A model generated the notes under the pieces. The model saw only the letters and a list, made by a program, of their open reading frames with translations. It was not told the DNA's origin and did not search any database. Shown here piece by piece: positions 51 through 21,019 of a stretch of 32,000 nt of DNA. A program made the translations under genes and the position numbers. How positions within the stretch are numbered: the stretch's first letter is position 1; each line of letters starts with the position of its first letter. Source of the stretch: Promethearchaeota archaeon (GTDB taxonomy: Archaea; Asgardarchaeota; Odinarchaeia; Odinarchaeales; JBHLKK01); the NCBI GenBank assembly GCA_048939465.1, contig JBHLPL010000007.1:1-32000 (forward strand), given 5' to 3'.

Positions 51-1514
51 TCATTTTGGAATTCTACGAATACCGAACTTCTCCAATTCCTTTAGCATGA
101 TCCTATCAAGCTCTTTCTCTGTATCTTCTGAAAGCATCTTTTTGGATTCTGATTCTTCTATAATAGACTCCACTTCTTCCTTGACCCTCTTTAATATATC
201 CTTTCTACCCTCTTTCTCCCATAGCTTTCTACCGGTCCTGTCAACAACCTTTGAAGGAACGTAATGCTCTTTTTCGAACCAATTCAGTGTATGCTTTAAA
301 CCCATGAAGCTCCCGTTTTTCCCTCTGACATTGAGTTCCTCCACTGCCATCGTTTCGCTTGAGACTTCGAAGCCTTTGGCTATTCGAAGAGCCATACCAC
401 ATATTTCGTTGTCAATGACAAGCTTTTCAATAGATTGAGTATTCTCAAATTCAAGCATTCCTGCACCTGATATGACGTTTATGCCTGCCATAGCTCCCAT
501 AACGGCTCCTATTCCACTTTCAAATCCTGCTTGGGCATCCACGACTTTCGAGTCTGACATCCCGAGATAGGAATGAGTGGGTAGACCAAGCCATTTCCCG
601 ATCTGAGAATATCCTATGTCAATTAGGACGGTCTCAGCGGCCCCCATCGGAGTTGTACCATACCTCATATCAAATGCGCTCGGAGAACCCCCGTAAACTA
701 CAGGAGTCCCAGGTTGAATTGCTTGTGCAAGAACAATTCCGCTCAAGGTCTCGGATGTATGTTGAACCAATGCACCTGCAATCGTAACGGGAGCATTTGC
801 CCCCATCAGAGGCATTGAGATGAGCTCAACAGGAATTTGATGATGTGCGCAATCGATTAAGCTCTCTGCGGTTATTTCACTGAACATTAAGGGAGGCGAT
901 GGACAGCAATCGAATATTGCGGTAGGATGCCTGGAAAGGTCTTCTCCCCCTCCTAGAGCTGTTGAGAGCATGTTTTTCATAACAAGCGTCCCGTCGACTG
1001 TAAATGTTCCAGTAATTATTGGCTTTATGGAATGTTTCAAAACGAGATATAACCTGTAACGGTCAGCAATATCTGAAGGAATGTCACTGCAGACCAGAGA
1101 CGTGCTCTGTGCGTGAATGTTGGACAAATTCTCAGCCACCTTTATGAACTTGATAAAATCTCCTGTAACAGGTTTCCGAGTGGTTCCTGATTTACTGTCC
1201 AAGAAGTTGAGAGCAGCTGAGCCCGGATTAAAGTACACATTGTTATTGCCAATGTCAAGTCTCCCTCTACCATCGCGTGAGTAAAGAGCGAACGAAGTTG
1301 GGCAACTTTTGAGGCTTTTCGAAACAAGATCTTCTGGGAATTTGACTACTCCACTCCTATTATCAACTTTGGCACCAGCTTGAGCAAGTATCTTGATGGC
1401 TCTCTTGCTCTGGAATATTATCCCCGTCGTTGACAATATCTTTAGTGAAGCCTCGTAGATTCTTTCCATGTCTTCAATTGAGAGTGCACGTACTGAGAGT
1501 CTAGATTGCACCAT
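51..1514 (-). CDS. mttB: Trimethylamine methyltransferase (MttB) superfamily corrinoid-dependent methyltransferase, non-pyrrolysine type
   Basis: Family motifs SPL(M)F, MGANAPVTIAGALVQ, PGTPVVYG, DMRYG, SDSKVVDAQAGFES, GINVISGAGMLE, KLVIDNEI. The ORF has no in-frame TAG, and Met sits at the Pyl-equivalent position (YLG-M-SDSK). Start moved to ATG 1514, which has a GGGAGGGA SD upstream. Confidence 0.93.
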   Translation of the reverse strand: MVQSRLSVRALSIEDMERIYEASLKILSTTGIIFQSKRAIKILAQAGAKVDNRSGVVKFPEDLVSKSLKSCPTSFALYSRDGRGRLDIGNNNVYFNPGSAALNFLDSKSGTTRKPVTGDFIKFIKVAENLSNIHAQSTSLVCSDIPSDIADRYRLYLVLKHSIKPIITGTFTVDGTLVMKNMLSTALGGGEDLSRHPTAIFDCCPSPPLMFSEITAESLIDCAHHQIPVELISMPLMGANAPVTIAGALVQHTSETLSGIVLAQAIQPGTPVVYGGSPSAFDMRYGTTPMGAAETVLIDIGYSQIGKWLGLPTHSYLGMSDSKVVDAQAGFESGIGAVMGAMAGINVISGAGMLEFENTQSIEKLVIDNEICGMALRIAKGFEVSSETMAVEELNVRGKNGSFMGLKHTLNWFEKEHYVPSKVVDRTGRKLWEKEGRKDILKRVKEEVESIIEESESKKMLSEDTEKELDRIMLKELEKFGIRRIPK

Positions 1515-1556
1515 TTCAAAGATCCCTCCCCGTAACAAATATCAATATATTTGAAA

Positions 1557-2689: not shown

Positions 2690-3835
2690 TTAGCCTTTTA
2701 GTAGTCTTTTTGCAATAACTAGCCTCTGAATCTCAGATGTCCCTCCGTAAATGGATGTTATTAAGGAATCCCTCAAGAATCGTTCAACAGGAAATTCTCG
2801 TGTATATCCATAACCGCCGTGTATCTGGACTGCCATCCTGGCTGTCCTAACTGCGGTCTCTGAGGCGAAGAATTTTGCCATGGCCACCTCTTTGGTAAAT
2901 TTCTTGTTTTGATCTTTCAGAACGGCAGCTCTGAGGGCAAGGAGACGTGCTGCTTCAATTTCTGTGGCTAGCTCTGCTAGTGTGAATTGGATATATTGAA
3001 AATTGGATATAGTTTTTCCGAATTGCACTCTTTGTTTGGCGTATTCAATGGTTTTGTCTAAGGCTGCCTGCGCGATACCTACTGCTTGAGCGGCAACACC
3101 CATTCTTACGTTATCAATACTCTTCATTGCTAGCTTGAATCCTTCTCCTTCTTCCCCGAGAAGGTTTTCCTTTGGCACCCTGCATTCTTCGAAGACTAGT
3201 TCTGCAGTAGGCGACCCCCTGATTCCGAGTTTCTCTTCAAGAGATCCTACGGAAAATCCAGGAGTCCCTTTCTCAACAATGAATGCACTGATGCCCTTAT
3301 GTGGTTTCTCTCCCTTTGACGTTCTTGCAAAAACAATGACCGTATCTGCTTCGCTTCCTTGACTGACAAACAGCTTGTTTCCAGATATGACGTATTCATT
3401 GCCATCCAAGGTTGCCTTGGTTTGAATTGCTGTAGGATCAGATCCGGCGTTGGCTTCGGTCAATGCAAAAACGCCTAGTTTTGCCCCTTGTGCGAGAGGT
3501 TTTAGAAATTTCTGTTTTTGGTCCTCTGTCCCAAACATGTTGAGTGGTTCACATACTAGGCTATTGTTTACCGACATAACAACGGAAACCGATGCGCTAA
3601 CCTTCGATATCTCTTCTACAGCCAATAGGTAACTCACCGAGTCTGTGCCTGCGCCCCCATACTCGGGCGGCACAGTCATTCCCAGCAGATTTAATTGTCC
3701 CATTTTCTTGACGGCTTCTGCAGGATACATCTCTTCTTTGTCTATCTTGTCAGCTATGGGTGCTAGTTCTTTCTCCGCGAATTCCTTAACCATATTTTTT
3801 ATCATTTCCTGTTCAGGAGTCAAACTAAAATCCAA
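2690..3835 (-). CDS. Acyl-CoA dehydrogenase family flavoprotein (short-chain/Bcd-like; canonical catalytic Glu absent)
   Basis: FALTEANAGSD, GNKLFVSQG, KLGIRGSPT, RVQFGK, QIHGGYGY, IYGGTSEIQR. TTG start at 3835 behind a GGAGG SD. Confidence 0.95.
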   Translation of the reverse strand: MDFSLTPEQEMIKNMVKEFAEKELAPIADKIDKEEMYPAEAVKKMGQLNLLGMTVPPEYGGAGTDSVSYLLAVEEISKVSASVSVVMSVNNSLVCEPLNMFGTEDQKQKFLKPLAQGAKLGVFALTEANAGSDPTAIQTKATLDGNEYVISGNKLFVSQGSEADTVIVFARTSKGEKPHKGISAFIVEKGTPGFSVGSLEEKLGIRGSPTAELVFEECRVPKENLLGEEGEGFKLAMKSIDNVRMGVAAQAVGIAQAALDKTIEYAKQRVQFGKTISNFQYIQFTLAELATEIEAARLLALRAAVLKDQNKKFTKEVAMAKFFASETAVRTARMAVQIHGGYGYTREFPVERFLRDSLITSIYGGTSEIQRLVIAKRLLKG

Positions 3836-3920
3836 CTCTAGACCTCCTTTAGGCTTGAGGCGGGAAGACTCTCCCAACACTTCCTTGTTCTTGAATTGGA
3901 GAACAGTTGTGTTCCAACTG

Positions 3921-5791: not shown

Positions 5792-6700
5792 CTATAGATC
5801 GAGCAATTCTCGGGCATTCTTTGTCAGGATCTGAACCTTTTCCTTGTTTGTTAAATAGGGAGAGCTTCTGATTTCGGCTATGATTGATTTTATGCTCACT
5901 TCGCCTAGTGCTGGGTAATCTGATCCAAACAGAACATGATCAAAACCTACTTTTTTCCTGATCTTCTCAGAGAAACTCCTTTTTGTAACCAAATATGTGA
6001 CTGCGGAGATGTCAAACCATACGTTATCATAGTCTTCTCCCAACCTCAGGGCCTCGTCAAGCCATATGCCGGGGTATCGCGCACTGTACGATCCCATGTG
6101 AGCTAGAATTACTGGCACTTTCCTGAATCTTTTGATCATATACTCAATGTATTTTGGGTTTGCATCTTCCGAAAATCGCGGAAATTCCCAGATGTGTGGG
6201 TCACAACCCGAGTGCCACATGACGATTTTTCTCTTCCTCTCACAGAAACCAAAAACCTTTTTCATCTTCTTCTTGCTCTTCAAGGGACTGAAAAACTGAA
6301 GTGTCGGTATGAGTTTGACCCCTCTGAGACCTAATCGGTCTACTTCCTTTATCTTTTCATCAATATACGGTTCGTCTTTAGACAAGTTCACAGATCCAAA
6401 GCCTAAGAATGTGTGAGGATACTTCATCATTAGATTTGCGACACGCTTGTTATCAATCCTTGAAATCTTAAGAAGATACCTCATGCCATCAATGACTTGT
6501 GGACCCGCCCAAATGTAGAGGTCCAGCAGACGCTGAAGGACTCCTTCGTATATTTCTGGTCTATCTAGATCCTTCGCGTCCACATCTAGAGCAATCAAGA
6601 CTGCGTATTCAATGGCCGCTTCCTTTAATTCAGATAGCATGCGATCCTCGCTTATGTACTTCAAGAAAGGATGTAGATGAAAATCTATGATCCCCTTCAA
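5792..6700 (-). CDS. Amidohydrolase family protein (Amidohydro_2-type TIM-barrel metallohydrolase)
   Basis: IIDFHLHP (HxH), WHSG, LAHMG, FDIS, FGSDYP. Confidence 0.9.
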   Translation of the reverse strand: MKGIIDFHLHPFLKYISEDRMLSELKEAAIEYAVLIALDVDAKDLDRPEIYEGVLQRLLDLYIWAGPQVIDGMRYLLKISRIDNKRVANLMMKYPHTFLGFGSVNLSKDEPYIDEKIKEVDRLGLRGVKLIPTLQFFSPLKSKKKMKKVFGFCERKRKIVMWHSGCDPHIWEFPRFSEDANPKYIEYMIKRFRKVPVILAHMGSYSARYPGIWLDEALRLGEDYDNVWFDISAVTYLVTKRSFSEKIRKKVGFDHVLFGSDYPALGEVSIKSIIAEIRSSPYLTNKEKVQILTKNARELLDL

Positions 6701-6713
6701 GACCTATGATCCC

Positions 6714-7919
6714 TCATCTGTAAGGAAGAAATTCTCTTCCTAGTATCTCTCTTGCGATTATTAGTCTCATGATGTTTTGGGTTCCTTCAGCACCTATGGA
6801 GTAAGATCTTACGCCTCTCAGTCCCATTTCGAGTGAACATTCCTTGGTATATGCAAAAGCTCCAACCCATGACATTACATCGTTGATGATATCAAATCCC
6901 ATGAGTGGTGCTTCTAATTTAGTCATGGCTGCCAGCTTCGAAACATCGTGATGAGTAAATCTCTTCTCTTGGTACATTCTATCTATCGTCCAAGCAGCCT
7001 TGTAGCATAACAGTCTATTGGCCTCTAGTCGCGCAGAATTATCAGCCAACTCAAACTGAATCCCCTCGAATTTTCCAATAGGGCGACCGAACGCCTTTCT
7101 TTGCTTGATGTACTCTATGCCATACTCTATGGCACCATCTGCGGCTCCAACACATGTGGCTCCGATCAGGACCCTGGCACACGAAAAGCCCTCCATAGCG
7201 TAGTAAAATCCCCTATTCATTTCACCGACGATATAATGCTCTGGTAACCTTACATCGTCCATAGTAAATCCGCCAGTGGAAATCCCCATCCTTCCCATAT
7301 CCTCGAACAGTGTTGTGGTTATCCCCGGAGTGTTTTTCAGGGGCACAAAACAGAAAGTCATACCTCTGTGCTCAAGTTTGGGTTCTGTCTTAGCAAGAGT
7401 AAGATGTCCTCCACCGTTCTTCTCGGCTTCTCTGACTCCGCTTATATAGATCTTTTCTCCATTAATTACGCAGTTCTCCCCCTCTTTCTTCATCAATGTT
7501 TTTCCTGCGCCCAGTATGTCCGACCCTCCCCCTGGCTCCGTAACTGCAATGCCTATGAATGCTTCTCCTTTGGTTACTCTAGGAAGAACCTCTTCTTTAG
7601 CCTGCTCCGTGCCATACTTGTCGAAGATATAACCCCAGGCCGCTTCCACTAAAAAAAGCACTGGTATTGCTACACTGATATCTGCTCGGCCCAGCTCTTC
7701 GGCGGCGATCGAAGCAAGTGTAAAATCTGCTCCTGCGCCTCCATATTCCGGCGAAACCGTCATGGCCAAGAGATTCAACCTTGCCATACCCTTTATAATC
7801 TCCTCAGGAATTTCACCTTTAGTGTCCATTTCTCTTACTCTGGGTGTGATCTCCTTTCGGCAGAATTCTCTCACAGTCCTTCTAAACAATTCTTGTTCTT
7901 CGGTGAAGCCGAAATCCAT
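6714..7919 (-). CDS. Acyl-CoA dehydrogenase (archaeal subfamily)
   Basis: IAVTEPGGGSD, GEKIYISG, RKAFGRPI, GAFAY, SIGAEGTQNIMR (Glu present at the C-terminal catalytic position). Confidence 0.95.
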   Translation of the reverse strand: MDFGFTEEQELFRRTVREFCRKEITPRVREMDTKGEIPEEIIKGMARLNLLAMTVSPEYGGAGADFTLASIAAEELGRADISVAIPVLFLVEAAWGYIFDKYGTEQAKEEVLPRVTKGEAFIGIAVTEPGGGSDILGAGKTLMKKEGENCVINGEKIYISGVREAEKNGGGHLTLAKTEPKLEHRGMTFCFVPLKNTPGITTTLFEDMGRMGISTGGFTMDDVRLPEHYIVGEMNRGFYYAMEGFSCARVLIGATCVGAADGAIEYGIEYIKQRKAFGRPIGKFEGIQFELADNSARLEANRLLCYKAAWTIDRMYQEKRFTHHDVSKLAAMTKLEAPLMGFDIINDVMSWVGAFAYTKECSLEMGLRGVRSYSIGAEGTQNIMRLIIAREILGREFLPYR

Positions 7920-8061: not shown

Positions 8062-8991
8062 ATGGCCAGGTTGATAAAAAAGCTGAAAACCAGTGAGCTG
8101 GACTTAATTCAACAATGCACCCTGGGCCCATCAAATAAACCTATAGGGGAGGTCAGTCTGGGAGAAGAACTAATCATTGAAACCTGTGACCGTTACGGAG
8201 ACGTCGTTGGTCGAGAGCACCCGTTGGATGTCATTCATAAGAAGAAACTTCCAATATATGAGAATCCAGTAACCGGTCCTTTGTATATAGTAGGAGCTGA
8301 GCCCGGAGACACCCTTATTGTGGAAATATTGGATATTGAGTTGCCTGATAGGGGAACCGTAACCCTCAAACCCGGTTGTGGAGCTCTTCAACCATGGCTT
8401 GAACAACAACCTACAATAACCAAATCCGTGAGAATCCAGAATGGCAAAATCTATTATGAAACTAATCACGGGAAAATCGTCGAGCTAGCCGCCAAGCCTT
8501 TTATAGGGACAATAGGCGTGGCACCGGCCGTCGAGGCAATTTCAACATTCACGCCTGAAAAGCATGGCGGAAATATGGATTGTGAAGATGTGTGCGCAGG
8601 GAGCAAATTATTCCTGCCGGTGTCAGTTGAAGGTGCACTGTTCGGTCTGGGGGACATTCATGCTTTGCAGGGAGATGGTGAGATTTGTGGCTATGCGGTG
8701 GAAGTCACAGCAAAAGTCAGACTCAGGCTAGGTATCCAAAAGAATAAGACTATCGAGTGGCCACGTATAGAGACAGCTGATGCAATAGCAACGGTTTGCA
8801 GCAGCAAGCCTTTAGAGGACGCTGCTCGTTTGGCATACGTAGAATTGATTAAGTGGTTAGAGGAAGATTACGGATTTGACCGATACGACGCATACATGTT
8901 CCTCAGCATTGCTGCAAGAGCTCGCATAGCTCAGATTGTGGACCCGTTATATACGGTGGAAGCAATCTTGCCAAAGAGATATTTGACATAA
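8062..8991 (+). CDS. Acetamidase/formamidase family protein
   Basis: NPVTGPLYIVGAEPGDTL, PFIGTIGVAP, HGGNMDC, GDIHALQGDGEICG. Confidence 0.92.
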   Translation: MARLIKKLKTSELDLIQQCTLGPSNKPIGEVSLGEELIIETCDRYGDVVGREHPLDVIHKKKLPIYENPVTGPLYIVGAEPGDTLIVEILDIELPDRGTVTLKPGCGALQPWLEQQPTITKSVRIQNGKIYYETNHGKIVELAAKPFIGTIGVAPAVEAISTFTPEKHGGNMDCEDVCAGSKLFLPVSVEGALFGLGDIHALQGDGEICGYAVEVTAKVRLRLGIQKNKTIEWPRIETADAIATVCSSKPLEDAARLAYVELIKWLEEDYGFDRYDAYMFLSIAARARIAQIVDPLYTVEAILPKRYLT

Positions 8992-10037: not shown

Positions 10038-10970
10038 CTAAGGCTTAGGAATTGCCAAATCCCTTGGTCCCTTACCGGAGAGCTTGACTTCTGGACAATT
10101 CTTCTCAACGATATCCCTTATTATTTCTGCATATTTCACCTTCTCTCGAGCCATAAAAGCAAGCCAATCTGGGCTAACCCAAGGTTTGTAAGAATTACCC
10201 ACTGTGGGGCCAGGTTCAATTTTGAAATATACGGGGGCACATGTCCTTGCAATTTCTGGAGTATCATAGAATCTGACAAACCCACCGAAGCTGTCGAATA
10301 GATAGACATGAACATCTATCGGCATGCTGACTGAAGCTCTGATGGCGGCAAGTTGAGGTAGTGACAAGTCTCCCAGTGGATTGAATGTTGATGCACCAAG
10401 TATTTCAAGGACTTTTCCTCCTGCTGGGTTACCGTGACCTGCGAAAATAGAAACCTTCAGAACCACATCCTTTGGGATTTCCCCAATTTTCTTCAATTCG
10501 TTCAAGACCCACAAGAGTCCTTCATCGATGACAAGAAAACCTCTAAATCCAAACTCGATTGTTCTTTTAATATCTGCAATCACCTGTGCCAGCTGCTCTG
10601 ATCCCCGGAACCGCATCCCTGACAAGGCCCCCTCAGGAGTAACGATTTGTCTTCCGACATCCCACGGGGATCTCGGTCCGGGAGTGATAATTACCTCCAT
10701 TTTGGCGTCCGCAGCCGTTTTTGCAAACGCTTGAAGTTCCTCATCTGAAAGAAGTGTCGAACCCATAACCGTTGAGATTAACCTGTGAACAGGAACATCT
10801 CGCTTCTCGGCTTCATCGATCAAGGCCTCCAAAGTTGAAGGTCGTTCAACACCACTAATCTCCATTCGGTAATGGCATCCGTCTGGAAAACGTTTTTCTG
10901 AGGACGGAAGATCGTACCTGTCTCTTCCTGGGATTCCAATCTTTTCCAGCGCTTTTCTAACATTCTCCAT
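10038..10970 (-). CDS. Conserved TIM-barrel protein of unknown function (usually annotated as U32-peptidase-like)
   Basis: Motifs LPSSEKRFPDGCHYRMEI, TPGPR..WD, RFRG.EQL, GFRGFLVIDEGLLW, KVSIFAGHGNP, DLSLPQLAAIR, GGFVRFYD.PEIAR. GGAGGGG SD upstream (start ATG 10970 or TTG 10976). Confidence 0.75.
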   Translation of the reverse strand: MENVRKALEKIGIPGRDRYDLPSSEKRFPDGCHYRMEISGVERPSTLEALIDEAEKRDVPVHRLISTVMGSTLLSDEELQAFAKTAADAKMEVIITPGPRSPWDVGRQIVTPEGALSGMRFRGSEQLAQVIADIKRTIEFGFRGFLVIDEGLLWVLNELKKIGEIPKDVVLKVSIFAGHGNPAGGKVLEILGASTFNPLGDLSLPQLAAIRASVSMPIDVHVYLFDSFGGFVRFYDTPEIARTCAPVYFKIEPGPTVGNSYKPWVSPDWLAFMAREKVKYAEIIRDIVEKNCPEVKLSGKGPRDLAIPKP

Positions 10971-11102
10971 TTGCAAGTTATCCCCTCCTACTAAGTGATA
11001 AGCATTATTAATTAGAATGAAGGTATTAATTCTTTTCTGAATTTGATTCATGAACATGAAGAACTACGCTTGGTGAGGTATGAAGCCCTGAGGGTGTAAA
11101 CT

Positions 11103-12536
11103 ATGAAGGAATTCAGACTCAAAGGTATTATGCCGGCGCTTGTTACGCCATTCACCAGAACAGGTGAGGTTGATCCAGGAGCATTCAAAAGACTGATTCG
11201 GTTTGTGATCGAAGAAGGAGTTACAGGTATCCTGGCTGGTGGTACGACAGGTGAGTTCATAAATCTCTCGTTAGAGGAAAGGAAGGCCACAATCAATCTT
11301 GCTGTAGACGAATCGAATGGACGTGTTCCTGTCATCGCCGGAACAGGTCATAGTTCCACAAGACAAACAATTGAGCTAAGCAATTACGCCTACGATGCTG
11401 GAGCTGATGCAGGATTGGTCGTAGCTCCCTACTATCTAGGAGCCGCAGATAAGAGCCTTTATGAGCATTTCTATCGAGTTGCTGAGGCCGTTGAACTTCC
11501 TCTGATTCTTTATAACATCCCCCAGTGTGCCGGTAATTATATTCCGCGTGAGGTCGTCGAGGATCTGGCCGCCATAGACAACATAGTTGGAATGAAGGAT
11601 AGTAGTGGCAACTTCCCCTACTTGATGAGCCTTCTTGAAAAAGTCGGGGACAAGATCAGTATAGTCGTTGGATATGATGAGATTGTTTTTCCTGCTTTGG
11701 TAGCTGGAGCACAAGGTGCCATCCTGGCCAGCGCCAATATTATTCCCGACATCTGGCTAAAGATATATGATGCCGTGCAAAGCAACCATCTAGCTGAAGC
11801 TCGAAAGCTTCAGATGGAGATTCAAAAACTAACCAGGATAATTACCCGTCATGGTGGGGCACTCCCCGTCAAATCTGCTTTAAAAATGATGAATCACAAA
11901 GTGGGCAAAACCAGGATGCCTATTGTCAGCGGAGGTTCTCTAACCTGGGAAGTCAGAGAAGAAATGAGGTTGGAGCTTGAGAAACTAGGCAAGATTAGAG
12001 CTGCGATGAAAAGGATTGAAAAAGTGGCAGAGCCCGTTAAGGAGCGTTTTAGGGACCTCGGTATAACGGTCGGTGACATTTCATCGCAGAGTCTTAAGAT
12101 AGGAGAGGGTTCGGCCGGTGATGGTGCCGAATTCGTTGAAGCAAGCATCGTTGCAGGATCATCTGAAGGAGTTGTTGGAGAAGGATATGCCACTGCGTTA
12201 ACTTGCCCAAGACCCGGTTATGAAGCCTTGACTGTTATTCTGGAGCCAAACCTGATGGTGAGGCCTCCAACAATAATCGTTCCGGAAGTCGAGATTAAAG
12301 ACATGAGACAGGCAAGTATGATCTATGGTCCCGTACAGGCTGCTGCCGGAATGGCGATACTGGAGAATCTTAGGAATAGGATAATCCCAGAAGATGCAAT
12401 TAGCAAGAATGTAATGATCCTAAAGATTTTTGCTCATCCTAGGGCCATTGATCGTTATAGTCTTTACTGGAACTGCTACGAGGCGATAGGAAAAGCTGTC
12501 AAGAGTGCTTGGCAAGGAGGAGAAAAAAATGAGTAA
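11103..12536 (+). CDS. Fusion: DapA/NAL-family class I aldolase (aa 1-298) + Fae-like domain (aa ~331-473, from nt 12093), paralog A
   Basis: GTTGE, PYY, LYNIP, KDSSG (Schiff-base K165). The C-terminus IGEG.AGDG.E...PNLMVRPPT...YGPVQ...IIPED...IFAHP aligns with Fae. Confidence 0.88.
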   Translation: MKEFRLKGIMPALVTPFTRTGEVDPGAFKRLIRFVIEEGVTGILAGGTTGEFINLSLEERKATINLAVDESNGRVPVIAGTGHSSTRQTIELSNYAYDAGADAGLVVAPYYLGAADKSLYEHFYRVAEAVELPLILYNIPQCAGNYIPREVVEDLAAIDNIVGMKDSSGNFPYLMSLLEKVGDKISIVVGYDEIVFPALVAGAQGAILASANIIPDIWLKIYDAVQSNHLAEARKLQMEIQKLTRIITRHGGALPVKSALKMMNHKVGKTRMPIVSGGSLTWEVREEMRLELEKLGKIRAAMKRIEKVAEPVKERFRDLGITVGDISSQSLKIGEGSAGDGAEFVEASIVAGSSEGVVGEGYATALTCPRPGYEALTVILEPNLMVRPPTIIVPEVEIKDMRQASMIYGPVQAAAGMAILENLRNRIIPEDAISKNVMILKIFAHPRAIDRYSLYWNCYEAIGKAVKSAWQGGEKNE

Positions 12537-14007
12537 GAGAAAAGGCGGCTGGCTAAAGGGAGTCATGCCCGCTCTCATAACCCCGTTTGATAAGAAAGGA
12601 GAAATCAAGGAGGATTCGTTAAGAACTCTTGTGAACTACACTCTTGAATGTGGGGTTACCGGCGTTGTTCCGGTAGGTACCACGGGAGAATTCGTCAACC
12701 TATCAATCGAAGAACGAGAAAGGGTCTACGATATCGTTATTGATCAAGTGAATGGCAAAGTTCCTGTGATAATTGGTTCGGGTGATAGCGGTACCAGAGA
12801 GGTAATTCAGCTAACAAGGTACGGAAAGGATGCTGGGGCTGACGCAGCGCTTGTTGTCACTCCATACTTTTTGAAGCCAACCTACAAGGAGATTTTTGAG
12901 CATTTCAAGAAAGTCTCTGAAGAAGTAGACTTCCCGATAGTACTGTATAATATTCCTGCCTGTACTGATGTTCATATCGGTTGGTGGACGGTCGAGGGAC
13001 TCGCTGATCTTGAGAACATAATTGGTATCAAGGATAGTAGCGGAAACATGTCTTTCATCATGACTCTGATGGAGAAGGTAAAGAAGAAGATTGCTGTAAT
13101 GTGCGGCTGGGATGAGATCGGCTTTCCTGCTTTGGCTGCCGGAGCAGATGGTCTAATTTTGGCAAGCGCGAATCTGATTCCGGACATCTGGATCGATCTC
13201 TATAACGCAGTTAAGGGCGAGGATTATGAGAAGGCCCGAAATCTACAGCTGAAAATACAGAAACTTGTAAGAATAGTCTGTAGACAAGGAGCAACTGAAG
13301 CTGTTAAGACAGGTCTGCAAATGATGGGTTTCGACGTAGGTTTTTCGCGTAAGCCAGTCGTAACGGGAGATATATTCCGCTATGAAGACCGCGAGGAATT
13401 GCGTCTGCAATTGGAAACCTTAAACAAAATAAGATCCAAGAGAATATCAATCTGTATTGACTCAAAAATTACTGAGAGTATGGTTGCTGCTATTCCTGAA
13501 ACACCTGATACAATTCAAGATTTCGCTTTGAAAGTCGGTGAAGCTTTGGCAGGCCCCCCTTCGTTTGAAGTTGCCCATATTGACCTTCTTATCGGGAAAA
13601 AAGATGGACCCTTAAAAAAGGCTTGCGATAAGGCATTGTCCAATAAAATAATGGGACATGAACCGAAAGTTGTGCTTCAAAGACCGCTTACTCTTCTGAT
13701 ACCGACCGTCTCGGTCAGAACAGAGAAGCAGGCAGCACACGTTTATGAGTTTGCCTCAAAAGGAGTAGCAAGAGCTGTAGAAGCAAGCGTGAAGGATGGT
13801 ATAGTTCCTGAAGAAATCTTGGATGAAATACTTCTAATTGCAAATGCTTTCGTGCATCCAACAGCTGTCAATGAGAAGAGGATATATTTTAACAATTACA
13901 AAGCAATGAGACATGCGATAAGGAAGGCCCTTGAAGAACGGCCGACAATTGATGAGCTTCTCCGCCTAGGTGAAACTGCCCGACACCCCTTCAGATACAC
14001 TCCCTAG
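12529..14007 (+). CDS. Fusion: DapA/NAL-family class I aldolase + formaldehyde-activating enzyme (Fae) domain (from nt ~13528), paralog B
   Basis: GTTGE, LYNIP, KDSSG (K168). Fae motifs VGEALAG..EVAHIDLLIG, FVHP, NNYKAM..AI.KAL, C-terminal HPF. ATG 12529 has GGAGG at 12516-12520 and overlaps the paralog A stop by 8 bp. Confidence 0.92.
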   Translation: MSKRKGGWLKGVMPALITPFDKKGEIKEDSLRTLVNYTLECGVTGVVPVGTTGEFVNLSIEERERVYDIVIDQVNGKVPVIIGSGDSGTREVIQLTRYGKDAGADAALVVTPYFLKPTYKEIFEHFKKVSEEVDFPIVLYNIPACTDVHIGWWTVEGLADLENIIGIKDSSGNMSFIMTLMEKVKKKIAVMCGWDEIGFPALAAGADGLILASANLIPDIWIDLYNAVKGEDYEKARNLQLKIQKLVRIVCRQGATEAVKTGLQMMGFDVGFSRKPVVTGDIFRYEDREELRLQLETLNKIRSKRISICIDSKITESMVAAIPETPDTIQDFALKVGEALAGPPSFEVAHIDLLIGKKDGPLKKACDKALSNKIMGHEPKVVLQRPLTLLIPTVSVRTEKQAAHVYEFASKGVARAVEASVKDGIVPEEILDEILLIANAFVHPTAVNEKRIYFNNYKAMRHAIRKALEERPTIDELLRLGETARHPFRYTP

Positions 14008-16216: not shown

Positions 16217-19066
16217 GTGATGGGGAAGGACTACATATTTGTTAAGGGAGCAAAAGTTCATAACCTCAAAAACATCGACGTGAGAATCCCTAGGAACAAT
16301 CTGGTTGCCATAACTGGCGTAAGCGGAAGTGGCAAAAGCTCGCTGGCATTCGATACCATATATGCTGAAGGTCAGCGTAGATACGTTGAGTCTCTTTCTG
16401 CTTACGCAAGGCAATTCCTTGAGCAAATGGAACGTCCCGATGTAGAGTACATTGAGGGCCTTTCTCCTGCTATAGCCATAGATCAAAAAGCTGTAAGCAA
16501 GAATCCACGTTCAACCGTGGGGACTGTTACCGAGATTTACGATTATCTGCGTTTACTTTTTTCAAACATTGGAATTCCCCACTGCTGGGTGTGTGGAAGA
16601 GAAATATCGCCTCAAAGTCCACAGGAAATAGTCGGCCAAATAATGGCTCTGGGAAAAGACAGAATTCTGATACTATCTCCTGTGGTAAGAGGAAAAAAAG
16701 GGCATTATCAAACCCTCTTTAGCGATCTGCAGAAGGAAGGATTTGTTAGAGTCCGGGTTGATGGGAGTGTATTCACTCTAGGCAAAGATGAGATTGAACT
16801 TGAAAGATACAAGAAGCACACTATTGAAATCGTGGTTGATAGAATAGCATTGGGTCAGGAAAGCTCCCAGCTGAGAAGCAGGATTGCAGACTCAGTGGAA
16901 ACCGCTCTCCGATACTCGGAAGGTTTGGTAGGTACAGTCTCCACGGATTCTGGTAAAGAACAGCTGTTCAGCACCGCAATGGCGTGTTCAAGCTGTGGAG
17001 TTAGCTTGGAGAAACTAACACCCCGTATGTTTTCATTCAACTCTCCCTATGGAGCTTGTCGAACATGTGACGGTCTTGGAGTAATAATGAAGGTCGATCC
17101 AAATCTAATTGTTCCAGACAAGACAATCTCTGTTTCTGAAGGGGCGGTATTGCCGCTAAGGAATATGAACAGCTATTACTACAAGATGCTTAGGTTAGTC
17201 GCAGAACATTATCGTTTCAGTCTTGATATTCCCTTTAAAGATATACCAGAAGAATGTCAAAAAATCGTCTTTTACGGCAGCAAGGATCCTATCAAATTCA
17301 CCATAAGAAGCACCTACGGGACAAGTGAGTGGAGCACATACAGGCCCTACGAAGGAATAGTAAACAACCTTGAAAGAAGATATCGCCAGACTAAATCCTC
17401 CTACATTAGGTCTGAAATACAAAGGTACATGGCAAACCTACCGTGTCCAGAATGTGGTGGACATAGACTCAAACCAGAAAGCTTGGCAGTAACCATAGGC
17501 GACAGAAACATTGCTAGGGTTTCTGAAATGTCAATAAAAGATGCCTACAAGTTCTTCTCTGAGCTGAGATTAACCGAAAGAGAGTCAATAATTGCGAAGA
17601 GGATACTAAGAGAGATTAAGGCTCGATTAGAGTTTTTGATTAATGTTGGCTTGGACTACCTTACAATCGACAGGTCCGCCTCGACATTGGCGGGCGGAGA
17701 AGCTCAGAGAATCAGGCTTGCAACCCAAGTAGGTTCCGGTCTCATGGGAGTCATCTATATACTTGATGAACCTAGTATCGGTCTTCATCAGAGGGACATA
17801 GCCCGTCTTCTAGCAACGCTGAAGAGGTTGCGAGATCTTGGAAACACAGTGATCGTCGTTGAACACGATGAGTCCACCATAAGATCTGCCGATTACATAA
17901 TTGATATGGGTCCCGGCGCCGGAGACTATGGAGGACGAATCGTCACGGCTGGAAAACTTGATAAGATTATTCGCAATGGGAATTCACTGACTACCAAGTA
18001 CTTGAAGGAAGAAATCAAGATTCCTGTTCCCCCAACCCGACGAAAGAGCAAGTCTCATCTCACAATCAAAGGTGCAAGAGAGCATAATCTGAAGAATATC
18101 GACGTTAAAATCCCTCTTGGGGTTCTTGTGTGTATTACGGGGGTTTCCGGAAGCGGCAAAAGCACTCTCATAAATGAGATCTTGTACAGGGGCCTGGCAA
18201 GGATCTTTTACAGATCAGGGTTAGCTCCCGGCGTTCACGACGGACTCAAAGGAGTCGAAAACATCGATAAGGTTGTTATTATTGATCAGTCTCCAATCGG
18301 AAGAACTCCCCGTTCTAATCTAGCTACCTACACAGGAGCTTGGACTCCTATAAGAGAACTCTTCGCAAACACAACTGAGGCAAAAGGAAGAGGATATTTC
18401 CCAGGGAGATTCAGCTTCAACGTCAGGGGCGGTAGATGCGGCGCCTGTGCGGGTCAGGGCATGATTAGGATTGAGATGCACTTCCTGCCGGACATCTACG
18501 TCACCTGTGACGTATGCAAGGGGAAGAGATTCAATCAAGAGACATTGGAGGTAACTTACAAAGGAAAGAACATAGCCGAAGTTCTTGATATGAGTGTCGA
18601 CGCAGCTTTTGGATTCTTCAAGAATATACCTACCGTCAAAAGAGTCTTGCAGACCGTAAGGGACGTAGGTCTTGGCTATGTCAAACTCGGTCAGACTGCA
18701 CCTACGTTATCGGGTGGAGAAGCTCAGAGAATAAAACTGAGTCGCGAACTGAGCAAAAGGGAGACCGGCAACACCCTCTACATCTTGGACGAACCGACCA
18801 CCGGTCTTCATTTCGCGGACATTCACAGATTACTCGATGTTCTTAGCCGTCTGGTCGACGGGGGAAACACAGTTTTGATAATTGAGCATAACATGGAAGT
18901 GATCAAGAGCGCAGATTACATAATTGATCTAGGGCCCGAAGGAGGAGACGAAGGAGGGTGGGTAGTGGCTGAAGGAACACCAGAAGAGATAGCAAAACGC
19001 CCCGATTCTTACACAGGTCAGTATCTGAGACGAATCCTGGACGCGGGAACAGACCGTCCTAATTAA
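16217..19066 (+). CDS. uvrA: Excinuclease ABC subunit A (class I)
   Basis: Two ABC ATPase modules (GVSGSGKSS; GVSGSGKST), [12 protein letters not shown], Zn-binding Cys clusters, [25 protein letters not shown]. Confidence 0.99.
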
Positions 19067-19085
19067 ACCTTGATTACGGTTAAAG

Positions 19086-19120
19086 GGTGTTCTGTTAGAA
19101 CATATGTTCTAACAGACACC
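19086..19120. promoter_or_regulatory. 24-bp perfect palindrome (19092-19115), extendable to 35 bp with one bulge; core AGAAC-ATAT-GTTCT
   Basis: GGTGT-T-CTGTTAGAACAT|ATGTTCTAACAG-ACACC in the uvrA-uvrC spacer. The palindrome is certain; its function is inferred. Confidence 0.6.
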
Positions 19121-19183
19121 GAAGTCGAGAGATGCGGTATCGATAGAAGGATGAAGATCAAAAATTGGGTTGGAGGACTACAC

Positions 19184-21019
19184 TTGACCCTCAGAGATGA
19201 AATCAACAAGACTTTTCCTAACAAGCCAGGAGTGTATTTCTTGAAAGACTCCAAGGGAGACATCATCTACATAGGGAAAGCTAAGGCTCTCAAGAAGCGA
19301 GTGCTTCAACATCTCGGGAGCAGAGATCCCAAAGAGAGCAATATTCGTAATAACACGACAGATGTTGATTTCATCACCACGGATACTGAAGCTGAGGCTC
19401 TGGGTCTTGAGATCGAGATGATAAAGAAGAATAGACCACGATTCAATGTCTTTTTCAAAGATGATAAGTCCTACCCATATGTCAGGGTGACTCGGGAAGA
19501 AGAATATCCCCGCTTATTCATAGCACGAAAGCTCAAGACCAAGAAAGATAAATCAGAGTACATCGGGCCTTATAGCGGTGTCCCAGCTCTCAAAAGAACG
19601 CTGAACTTCCTAAGAAAGAGCTTTCCAGTAGCCAGCTGCAAATCAAAGATTATCGTAGGTAAAAGGAAACGTCCTTGTCTTGAGTACAACATCAAAAGAT
19701 GCCTTGCACCATGTGTCAAACCCGTTAACACGGCGGAATATCAAAAATTGGTAAATCAGTTTACGTTCTTTTTAGAAGGCCGAGACAAGCAACTGATTGG
19801 CGAATTAAAAAGAGAAATGAGTAACGCATCAGACAAGCTAGAGTTTGAGCGAGCTGCTCTTCTGAGGGATAGACTGGAAGCTGTTGAAAGGACGATTGAG
19901 AGACGCATGATTTCTTTGGATATCGGAGACCACGATTTCCTTGGACTGTCAAAAGAAGGTGGTTTAGCATGTTTGACTTTGCTTTCGGTAAGAGAGGGAA
20001 GAATGACAGAGCAAAATAGTTTTGTACTGAGGGTGCCAGAAGGAAGCTCAAAAGAAGATGTTTTGGAAAGCTTCATCGAGCAATATTACTATCAGTCCAC
20101 ACACATTCCTGCTGCAGTGATCATTCCCTTCAAGATCAAAAGCGATGAGGCCCTTGAGGCATTGCTCTCCTCTCTCCGTGGCAATATTGTGAGAATCAAT
20201 AAACCTAAGGAAGACATTGAACTGAAATTGCAGCGGTCAGTAACTGAAAACGCGGAGACAACTCTGAAACGAACGATCTTAAGGCAGCAACTCGAAGCTC
20301 AAAAGGCCCAGCTGATCGTAGAGGACCTAAAAAAGCATCTACCAGTCGGACTGAAGTTGGACGAGCTGGAGGTAGTTGAAGGATTTGACGTTTCTGCCTT
20401 GATGGGGGCTAATGCTGTTGGATCCTGTGTTGTCTTTAAAGATTGCAAACCCAAGAAAAGCGATTATCGCCGATTCAAAATAAAATGGATTAAAGGACAA
20501 GATGATTTTGCTATGATGGAAGAGATTGTTGAACGCAGGCTGGAGCAGCTTCTCAACGATGGCGAGAAGCTGCCAGATCTGATTCTCGTGGATGGTGGAA
20601 TAGGTCAGCTGAATGCCGCGCTCAAGGCAGAGCAGAGAACCGCTGTAAGAACTCCTACTATTGCTTTGGCCAAGGAACATGAGGAAATCTATGTTCCGGG
20701 GTTTAGAAGTCCAGTTAAACTACCTGAAGATTCACCTGCTCTGCTGTTCCTGCGTAGAGTTAGAGACGAGGCTCATAGGTTCGCTGTATCCTACCATCGC
20801 AAGTTAAGAAAAGACAAGATGGTAAGATCTTCCCTGGATGAGATCCCCGGAGTTGGACCTAAGACAAGGAATAAGCTTCTGAAGCATTTCGGGAGTGTTG
20901 AGCGTATAGCTGTGCTAAATGTTGAAGAGCTACGTTCTATTTCTATAGGTAAGAAACTCGCTGAAAGGATTTTAAAACACCTGCGCAACCGCTATCCCAA
21001 AAGGCCTGGAAATGAATAA
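19184..21019 (+). CDS. uvrC: Excinuclease ABC subunit C
   Basis: GIY-YIG (PGVY...IYIGKA), DDKSYPY, Cys cluster CLEYNIKRCLAPC, UVR domain, RNase H-like GFDVS/DGG/RDEAHRFA, HhH (IPGVGPK). TTG 19184 behind GGAGG. Confidence 0.98.
   Translation: MTLRDEINKTFPNKPGVYFLKDSKGDIIYIGKAKALKKRVLQHLGSRDPKESNIRNNTTDVDFITTDTEAEALGLEIEMIKKNRPRFNVFFKDDKSYPYVRVTREEEYPRLFIARKLKTKKDKSEYIGPYSGVPALKRTLNFLRKSFPVASCKSKIIVGKRKRPCLEYNIKRCLAPCVKPVNTAEYQKLVNQFTFFLEGRDKQLIGELKREMSNASDKLEFERAALLRDRLEAVERTIERRMISLDIGDHDFLGLSKEGGLACLTLLSVREGRMTEQNSFVLRVPEGSSKEDVLESFIEQYYYQSTHIPAAVIIPFKIKSDEALEALLSSLRGNIVRINKPKEDIELKLQRSVTENAETTLKRTILRQQLEAQKAQLIVEDLKKHLPVGLKLDELEVVEGFDVSALMGANAVGSCVVFKDCKPKKSDYRRFKIKWIKGQDDFAMMEEIVERRLEQLLNDGEKLPDLILVDGGIGQLNAALKAEQRTAVRTPTIALAKEHEEIYVPGFRSPVKLPEDSPALLFLRRVRDEAHRFAVSYHRKLRKDKMVRSSLDEIPGVGPKTRNKLLKHFGSVERIAVLNVEELRSISIGKKLAERILKHLRNRYPKRPGNE

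Follow-up and report, generated by a model that had tools for sequence, protein, structure and literature searches.

The locus lies in a 32,000-nucleotide stretch of DNA (the window) from a sediment Asgard archaeon whose genome is 91% complete. It consists of two adjoining genes, A and B, each encoding an aldolase barrel followed by a Fae-type domain, and a divergently oriented neighbour, X313. The features are as follows, with the intergenic region and its repeat read from the sequence.

10038..10970, minus strand: X313, a conserved TIM-barrel protein of 310 aa, divergent from gene A
10971..11102: divergent intergenic region, 132 bp
11047-11060, within the 132-bp intergenic region: perfect inverted repeat TTCATG-AA-CATGAA
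11103..12536, plus strand: gene A, 477 aa, with the aldolase barrel at 11118-11930 and a degenerate Fae-type domain at 12099-12515
12516..12520, plus strand: GGAGG ribosome-binding site of gene B, within the 3' end of gene A
12529..14007, plus strand: gene B, 492 aa, with the aldolase barrel at 12553-13365 and the Fae domain at 13534-13992

The ATG of gene B is at 12529 and the TAA of gene A at 12534-12536, so the genes overlap by exactly 8 bp. This and the position of the GGAGG agree with the initial annotation of the locus, which described two coupled genes with an internal ribosome-binding site. X313 starts with an ATG at 10970, with AGGAGG upstream. A and B are diverged paralogues with 42% identity, and a 492-aa twin of B is present in the database. 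The annotation also held that no DapA-Fae fusion has been characterised, and our literature search likewise turned up no publication on a fusion of DHDPS with Fae; the Atabeyarchaeia paper has nothing on one.

Both proteins match the Pfam DHDPS family, PF00701, far above its cut-off of 22.1 (A 253.5 bits, B 254.6 bits). All the motifs of the class I aldolase that had been claimed for each gene were found, with the catalytic residues intact: GTTGE at A47 and B50, YNIP with its tyrosine at A137 and B140, and KDSSG with the Schiff-base lysine at A165 and B168. We compared 49 relatives (14 A, 14 B and 21 single-copy fusions). The equivalents of T44/T45, Y133 and K161 are retained in both paralogue groups and in the single-copy fusions, with few exceptions among the 49; one of the 14 B sequences has a serine at the Schiff-base lysine position.

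A and B both pass the TIGR00674 dapA equivalog cut-off of 206.15 (217.2 and 226.1 bits), and their closest PDB sequence matches are DHDPS structures. These results favour a genuine DapA (4-hydroxy-tetrahydrodipicolinate synthase) with an accessory Fae domain, but several others oppose it. Arg138, the residue that binds the carboxylate of aspartate semialdehyde in E. coli DHDPS, has no counterpart in any of the sequences compared. The position, five residues past the tyrosine of YNIP, is a cysteine in A and B and C, V, T or L across the 49 relatives, with arginine in none. The host genome yielded no DHDPS gene besides A and B. Searches of its 91% complete genome found no DapB (best match 24.8 bits against a cut-off of 122), no match to aspartate-semialdehyde dehydrogenase (ASD, PF02774) and no homoserine dehydrogenase (HomDH), while each of these searches was positive in 11 to 14 of 14 control genomes. 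In addition, it is in the Asgard families with HomDH that plain matches of DapA strength (E about 1e-40) are seen. A genuine DapA is extremely improbable; judged by their sequences, A and B are not DapA and the DapA annotation is a mislabel. Its systematic use across the family misleads reconstruction of the lysine pathway in abundant sediment microbes.

The C-terminal domains both match the Pfam Fae family, PF08714, as had been proposed (A 114.8 bits, B 128.7 bits; cut-off 27). The Fae equivalog-domain model TIGR03126 is passed by B (142 bits against 118.05), with A slightly under at 116.8. The earlier picture of a Fae domain in each gene thus holds for the fold but not for the active site, which is complete in neither. 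B retains GE, AHID (His350/Asp352), FVHP and the C-terminal HPF; its LEPN loop is deleted and the GPxQ motif is absent. In A, VEAS (345-348) replaces AHID and the C-terminus ends at profile position 139 of 159, leaving the domain without the His/Asp motif or the C-terminal HP segment and with only the LEPN/GPxQ face. A catalytic role was reportedly proposed for the corresponding His22/Asp24 motif of Fae with the 1Y5Y structure.

This division is systematic. Of the residues invariant in the 21 single-copy fusions, which retain the complete Fae set in one chain, one group survives in B alone and a second in A alone. The His/Asp motif and C-terminal HP are strictly conserved in B (14/14) and the opposing face is strictly conserved in A; neither protein carries the full family-invariant set singly, and together they carry all of it. 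A forms one clade and B another across Asgard archaea, Methanomassiliicoccales and Chloroflexi (supports 1.0 and 0.96), with mirrored topologies. The complementary loss suggests that each A:B pair has a single composite Fae site.

Structure prediction is consistent with such a pair. The predicted A-Fae:B-Fae complex had an ipSAE of 0.88, against 0.00 for the best control; 51 of 78 solved complexes attain this mark, as do 2 of 108 mismatches. Contact agreement between runs was at least 92% and partner pLDDT at least 88. The predicted interface includes 14 of the 16 A-kept residues (hypergeometric p about 8e-7) and B His350/Asp352, while the B-kept residues are weakly enriched (12/29, p = 0.09). 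The prediction may reflect memory of the solved Fae pentamer (1Y5Y). The initial annotation had described a complete aldolase barrel and a Fae domain in each gene. Given the complementary halves and the predicted complex, a single heteromer is likelier than two equivalent enzymes, and A and B look like the two parts of one with a single composite Fae site. The pair would be a clean example of subfunctionalisation, with one interface active site divided between two paralogues.

The host has the tetrahydromethanopterin (H4MPT) one-carbon genes that had been expected of it: Mch (417.6 bits) and, on contig C57 and separate from A and B, a bona fide canonical Fae-Hps (601.7 bits, NF009833). The fusion family is large, with more than 5,000 matching database proteins. 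It is present in 128 of the 133 sampled genomes of Asgard families f6, f9 and f12, and also in Bathyarchaeia, Thermoplasmata and Chloroflexi; a metagenome scan with gene B as a single-sequence query found four loci. Across an Asgard sample of 251 genomes, the families with the fusion are the families with Mch. The module also occurs, together with FolD, in Mch-less genomes, represented by a closed genome from Methanomassiliicoccales and a MAG from Chloroflexi; the genomes with fusion relatives but no Mch include G251 and G252. H4MPT may therefore not be the only carrier used by the module, and the carrier is uncertain.

The neighbourhoods of 20 Asgard fusion loci contained an M20 peptidase, an NTP transferase and unknown proteins, and gave no guide to function. 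HomDH is mostly absent from the fusion-bearing Asgard families: searches of the Asgard sample detected it in 6 of the 31 genomes that carry the fusion and in 26 of the 50 others, a pattern confounded by kinship that amounts to only two or three independent contrasts. HomDH and the fusion occur together in G007, G041, G058, G064, G070 and G252.

X313 has no Pfam match of its own. Weak matches to PF01136 (peptidase U32) were seen in 13 of 33 members of its family (best E 7.7e-8), X313 itself having none. The U32 proteins UbiU/V, RlhA and TrhP have a conserved cysteine cluster for an Fe-S centre; in the 33-member X313 alignment, none of the columns that are invariant or nearly so is a cysteine. 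The AF2 model of X313 has a pLDDT of 95. Fold searches with it (pdb, afdb_swissprot, afdb_clusters and pdb_via_wide) returned generic TIM barrels, the nearest being CutC (Z 15.3), the U32 protein Mk0906 (Z 14.4) and class II aldolases, and indicated no function. The model suggests a distant U32/CutC/class II aldolase-like protein. X313 is well conserved, with 62-78% identity across phyla, and adjoins aldolase-Fae genes at ten loci. It is also found in a Thermoplasmata operon, HomDH-AFOR-AT-X313-AT, in genomes without a detected Fae domain, beside PanB at three bacterial loci (L017, L024 and L029), and in the arrangement 2-hydroxyacid dehydrogenase-X313-ALDH. Five Asgard genomes carry the fusion but yielded no X313, so its contexts bear on the fusion only indirectly.

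A and B probably form one bifunctional enzyme that passes one-carbon units from keto acid to pterin carrier or back. Each of its two subunits would contribute a barrel that works as a Schiff-base (class I) aldolase on 2-oxoacids, from the DHDPS/NAL superfamily but not DapA. The His/Asp face of B would meet the LEPN/GPxQ face of A to make one composite formaldehyde/pterin site per A:B pair. Aldol cleavage or formation would release or consume formaldehyde, in the simplest case 4-hydroxy-2-oxobutanoate (HOB) <-> pyruvate + HCHO, and would be coupled to HCHO + H4MPT <-> methylene-H4MPT, the net activity being that of a 2-oxoacid hydroxymethyltransferase. Such an enzyme would follow the logic of Fae-Hps while its net chemistry would be as in PanB.

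We infer the substrate, carrier and direction from the logic of the domains, and hold the specific function, interconversion of a 4-hydroxy-2-oxoacid (most simply HOB) with pyruvate and methylene-H4MPT, tentatively, at a little under even chances. Formaldehyde-linked aldol chemistry, which the initial annotation had put forward, is the simplest reading of a class I pyruvate aldolase and Fae in one protein. This reading gains indirect support from the X313 contexts, which include HomDH, aminotransferases, AFOR, 2-hydroxyacid dehydrogenase and PanB, and the scarcity of HomDH in fusion-bearing Asgard families is in keeping with it.

The pair might instead carry out other DHDPS-family chemistry that does not involve formaldehyde, either aldol chemistry with a larger aldehyde or dehydration or deamination as by KdgD or pyrroline-hydroxy-carboxylate deaminase, with the Fae pair repurposed for oligomerisation, regulation or another ligand. 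The superfamily is diverse, and the matches of A and B to the NCBIfam HpaI-like, NanA and KdgD models are all sub-threshold. The occurrence of the module in genomes without Mch, and a canonical Fae-Hps already in the host, fit this explanation as well. However, the strict retention of the complementary Fae residues in B and A is what would be expected if they formed a conserved site for catalysis or ligand binding and not a scaffold, and the passing of the Fae equivalog-domain model by B and the way the fusion tracks Mch by Asgard family also point away from a function free of formaldehyde. We consider it somewhat unlikely.

An H4MPT-dependent analogue of PanB, making ketopantoate from ketoisovalerate and methylene-H4MPT for coenzyme A synthesis, is highly unlikely. 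X313 adjoins PanB in bacteria and the fusion in archaea, which resembles non-homologous displacement, and no PanB was detected in G251 and G252, which carry the module, or in Asgard families f13 (0/3) and f16 (0/5). However, the host has a PanB (314 bits, contig C20) beside a GHMP-kinase-like gene, and genomes with the fusion also have PanB in f6 (10/10), f12 (8/9) and f9 (6/9), so that we reject PanB replacement as a general explanation. A branched donor would also need room at C3, and we know of no such room in DHDPS-type sites. The ketopantoate reaction offered in the initial annotation is therefore disfavoured.

Within the formaldehyde-linked reading, the pair could be a natural HOB synthase/lyase, supplying HOB from pyruvate and methylene-H4MPT for conversion to homoserine by an aminotransferase in archaea without aspartate-semialdehyde or homoserine dehydrogenases, with X313 acting on the same C4 intermediate. 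We think this unlikely; if true, it would be a naturally occurring equivalent of two engineered routes, the homoserine cycle and the HOB-dependent C1 pathway. The host has two ThrC-family genes (NF005035, 414.9 bits; TIGR00260, 218.6 bits) and, in our searches of its genome, no canonical ThrB to go with the missing HomDH and ASD. The high-scoring Asgard ThrC genes that adjoin HomDH belong to other families, and ThrC-like paralogues of lower score are seen both where HomDH is present and where it is not, so the host's ThrC-family genes may be something other than threonine synthases. A hole in the threonine pathway, considered as a lead, is without firm support. A Cys/Met-family PLP gene on contig C64 is interrupted by the contig end and falls under every equivalog cut-off.

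If the formaldehyde-linked chemistry holds, A and B would represent a new way to join C1 units with central keto acids, and maybe the first natural enzyme for a reaction known so far only from promiscuous activities exploited in synthetic methylotrophy.

A and B have the fold of the DHDPS/NAL superfamily (DapA, NanA, the KDG aldolases YagE/YjhH and HOGA), its Schiff-base lysine and, in the GTTGE and YNxP motifs, its threonines and tyrosine. They differ in lacking Arg138 and a lysine-pathway context, in having a C-terminal Fae domain and in being a pair of paralogues. Fae assembles as a homopentamer in which the interface sites are identical, and since alternating A and B subunits cannot close an odd ring, the A/B assembly must differ from it. 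The Fae domain of B aligns with the stand-alone Fae of Methylobacterium extorquens (PDB 1Y5Y/1Y60) over residues 6-166, with AHID and the C-terminal HPF conserved.

Archaeal Fae-Hps is a bifunctional 5,6,7,8-tetrahydromethanopterin hydro-lyase/3-hexulose-6-phosphate synthase, and is likewise a fusion of Fae to a formaldehyde-handling aldolase that lets formaldehyde pass between an aldol reaction and H4MPT. However, its aldolase is a C-terminal, OMPDC-type Hps, whereas that of A and B is an N-terminal Schiff-base barrel of the DHDPS family. A and B match NF009833 in the Fae part only (89.9 and 108.4 bits; cut-off 274) and have no Hps domain. Their Fae function is divided between two paralogous subunits, and their substrate would be a 2-oxoacid instead of ribulose 5-phosphate.

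PanB, ketopantoate hydroxymethyltransferase, occurs beside X313, as does the fusion. It is a metal-dependent enzyme of the class II type without homology to A or B, neither of which matches PF02548. We know of no natural HOB synthase; a HOB-dependent C1 pathway was reportedly described by Bouzon et al. in 2017. A review that includes the homoserine cycle describes HOB as a non-native metabolite (PMC8879981). The initial annotation cited a promiscuous condensation of pyruvate with formaldehyde by E. coli YagE/YjhH, whereas the review names RhmA only. The net reaction proposed for A and B would be that of these synthetic HOB routes and of PanB, the transfer of a hydroxymethyl group between a methylene-pterin and C3 of a 2-oxoacid.

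Genes A and B are co-directional and, as read from the window, overlap by 8 bp, with a GGAGG ahead of gene B, as the initial annotation had described.

11103-12536, forward strand: gene A, 477 aa, with its TAA stop at 12534-12536
12516-12520, forward strand: GGAGG, preceding the start of gene B
12529-14007, forward strand: gene B, 492 aa, its best start the ATG at 12529

A protein search found a 492-residue database twin, the same length as gene B read from this ATG. The proposed fusion of an aldolase barrel to a Fae domain held in both genes: the Pfam matches to DHDPS (253.5 bits in A, 254.6 in B) and, for the C-terminal domains, to Fae (114.8 and 128.7 bits) are far over the cut-offs, and both proteins have the motifs GTTGE, YNIP and KDSSG. 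Across their full length A and B share 42% identity.

Both proteins also pass the TIGR00674 cut-off, which accounts for their DapA names in databases and speaks for a true DapA. Against this, the position of E. coli DapA Arg138, the aspartate-semialdehyde ligand, is Cys in A and B; among relatives (14 A-type, 14 B-type and 21 single-copy) it is C, V, T or L and in no case Arg. The aldolase residues themselves (both threonines, the tyrosine and the Schiff-base lysine) are kept in all three forms. A and B are the only DHDPS-family genes of the host, and no DapB, ASD (aspartate-semialdehyde dehydrogenase, PF02774) or HomDH (homoserine dehydrogenase) was found in this 91%-complete genome by searches that were each positive in 11 to 14 of 14 control genomes. 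A true DapA is thus very improbable. That the proteins are not DapA, and that A and B work together, we hold with high confidence, much more firmly than the full mechanism. The host (G000) has two ThrC-family genes (C83:1809-3224 and C53:3954-5072), yet searches of it found no HomDH, ASD or canonical homoserine kinase. Other Asgard genomes carry lower-scoring ThrC-like paralogues whether or not they have HomDH, and the two host genes may not be threonine synthases.

The case for joint action comes from the Fae domains, compared at columns at least 90% conserved in 21 proteins of the single-copy (S) type. B keeps, and A has lost, GE, E, AHID (aligned with His22/Asp24 of Methylobacterium extorquens Fae), P, T/V, FVHP (aligned with Phe119), R, NN, R-A-E and the C-terminal HP..P. 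Conversely, A keeps G359, E374, L376, LEPN380-383, V386, GP409-410, Q412, K417 and R451, which are gone from B, where LEPN380-383 is deleted; K417 is Met in the window's own A. In Fae, the cleft that takes up H4MPT lies where two adjacent subunits meet. As opposite faces have decayed in opposite paralogues, we predict a single live interface, formed by the His/Asp face of B and the loop face of A. A predicted complex of the two Fae domains scored an ipSAE of 0.88, against 0.00 for the best control, with run agreement of at least 92% and partner pLDDT of at least 88; 51 of 78 solved complexes reach this mark, as do 2 of 108 mismatches. Resemblance to the known pentamer structure of Fae may account for the high score. 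The predicted interface holds 14 of the 16 A-kept residues (p about 8e-7), together with His350, Asp352, GE337-338 and HP486-487 of B; the B-kept set as a whole is weakly enriched in it (12/29, p = 0.09).

The fusion is widespread. A protein search gave more than 5,000 matches, and the best 120 were all about 490 aa long with DHDPS and Fae, from Thermoplasmata, Methanomassiliicoccales, Bathyarchaeota, Baldrarchaeia and Chloroflexi. Among 251 Asgard genomes, matches at E <= 1e-20, a count that takes in plain DapA, occurred in 57/60, 53/54 and 18/19 genomes of families f6, f9 and f12, the main sources of the full-length fusions listed, and in none of the 26, 10 and 5 genomes of f4, f14 and f17. 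One undifferentiated fusion is found in Bathyarchaeia and Asgard f9, f12, f13, f16 and f27, and an adjoining A/B pair in the window, Baldrarchaeum, Asgard f6, a Methanomassiliicoccales genome and Chloroflexi. A maximum-likelihood tree puts every A protein in one clan (support 1.0) and every B protein in a second (0.96), and the two clans have mirrored internal topologies. This indicates that A and B arose by a single old duplication and have since been inherited and transferred together. The Chloroflexi pair has a 64-aa DUF6485 gene between A and B (L009:7489-7683). Directly upstream of the single-copy fusion in five Asgard loci of f27 and f9 (L077:7444-8724, with equivalents in L078, L083, L084 and L085) lies a gene whose product (about 426-447 aa) matches nothing in Pfam or NCBIfam and may be a second conserved partner.

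The host genome (1.96 Mb, 91% complete) encodes Mch (417.6 bits), divergent from an adjoining bona fide Fae-Hps (601.7 bits, cut-off 274), on a contig other than the window's; FolD was not found in it. The H4MPT pathway whose absence would have counted against the initial annotation is therefore represented, and the aldolase-Fae pair is extra to the host's canonical Fae. The expected co-occurrence with H4MPT genes stood within Asgard, where the fusion-bearing families are the Mch-bearing families, but failed in a closed Methanomassiliicoccales genome and a Chloroflexi MAG (G251 and G252): both carry the whole module and FolD, Mch was not found in either, and the pterin there may thus be H4F.

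The gene divergent from A encodes X313, a TIM-barrel protein.

10038-10970, reverse strand: X313, 310 aa, upstream of gene A
11047-11060: inverted repeat TTCATG-AA-CATGAA, a perfect palindrome within the 132-bp gap between X313 and gene A, and a candidate operator
L016, L018, L019, L020, L022 and L025 (Thermoplasmata): operon HomDH - AFOR - aminotransferase - X313 - aminotransferase

X313 has no Pfam match; its AF2 model is a TIM barrel (pLDDT 95) whose closest folds are unspecific (CutC, U32 Mk0906, class II aldolases). The family alignment has many invariant Arg, Asp and Lys and no conserved Cys, and identity across phyla is 62-78%. X313 adjoins fusions in Methanomassiliicoccales, Chloroflexi, Baldrarchaeum, Bathyarchaeia and Asgard f12/f13, but is not obligatory, as searches of five Asgard genomes with a fusion did not find it. 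The Thermoplasmata operon, in which the first aminotransferase is variable and AFOR is aldehyde:ferredoxin oxidoreductase, has no fusion nearby, and four tested genomes with it had no Fae-domain gene; at L016 and L018 a 2-hydroxyacid dehydrogenase adjoins it. The operon suggests a C4 amino-acid route not yet described, where the role of AFOR may be to oxidise formaldehyde or to convert aspartate to and from its semialdehyde. Other contexts are PanB-X313 (three bacterial loci), 2-hydroxyacid dehydrogenase-X313 followed by two ALDH genes, ALDH-X313, AcnX/PrpD, and MttB-family methyltransferases (flanking in L023 and L086) with a Cys/Met-type PLP enzyme. Their common denominator, a lead and not proof, is C4 hydroxy-, oxo- and amino-acid chemistry (homoserine, 4-hydroxy-2-oxobutanoate (HOB), 2,4-dihydroxybutyrate) with hydroxymethyl transfer.

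The best-supported mechanism, which we tentatively propose at somewhat below an even chance, is a heteromeric aldolase-Fae enzyme in which formaldehyde would be released or consumed in the aldol reaction of a 2-oxoacid, and a single composite Fae site would couple this reaction to the formation of methylene-pterin. If the donor is pyruvate, the rule in the superfamily, the sole product or substrate would be HOB, which has been treated as a non-native compound (PMC8879981). The enzyme could run catabolically, as C1 supply (homoserine/HOB to pyruvate and methylene-H4MPT), or biosynthetically (C1 and pyruvate to HOB to homoserine). HomDH was found in none of 24 sampled genomes of the fusion-carrying f1, f6, f12 and f13, nor in the host; it is present in f2, f3, f7 and f19, where matches are of plain-DapA strength only. 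In family f9, the fusion is missing from genus g17, which has HomDH, and HomDH is missing from g9 and g26, which have the fusion. In total, HomDH is present in 6 of 31 genomes with the fusion and in 26 of the 50 others, but exceptions exist and the genomes are kin, so this is a handful of contrasts and not a statistical result.

An analogue of PanB would fit the lack of PanB in f13, f16, G251 and G252, but PanB coexists with the fusion in the host, f6, f12 and f9. This excludes a general PanB substitute and leaves an analogue improbable. Some other DHDPS-type chemistry, with the Fae pair repurposed, is unlikely, though less so than the analogue.

A gene neighbouring the pair has its closest relative, 92% identical, labelled Hodarchaeota, and in the phylum-level sample the genomes behave as Asgard archaea. 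The window encodes an archaeal Nre, and metagenomes of mangrove and sediment from several studies contain near-identical DNA. At 16217-21019 this archaeal contig has tandem genes for UvrA (949 aa) and UvrC (649 aa) of bacterial type. Upstream of the module are two acyl-CoA dehydrogenases, an Amidohydro_2 protein and a short acetamidase/formamidase-family protein (2690-3880, 6714-7919, 5792-6700 and 8062-8991). An MttB-family gene (51-1538, reverse strand, 495 aa) reads through with no in-frame TAG, scores 399.7 on TIGR02369, under the cut-off of 525, and contains an Rfam PYLIS_3 element (461-560, 40.6 bits); it is probably a non-pyrrolysine quaternary-amine methyltransferase retaining a homologous RNA-like stretch.

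Our literature search gave no published description of a DHDPS-type aldolase-Fae fusion, in agreement with the initial annotation. The pair shares the aldolase-Fae theme with Fae-Hps, but differs in its aldolase superfamily and its split Fae site; the arrangement is new on a known theme.
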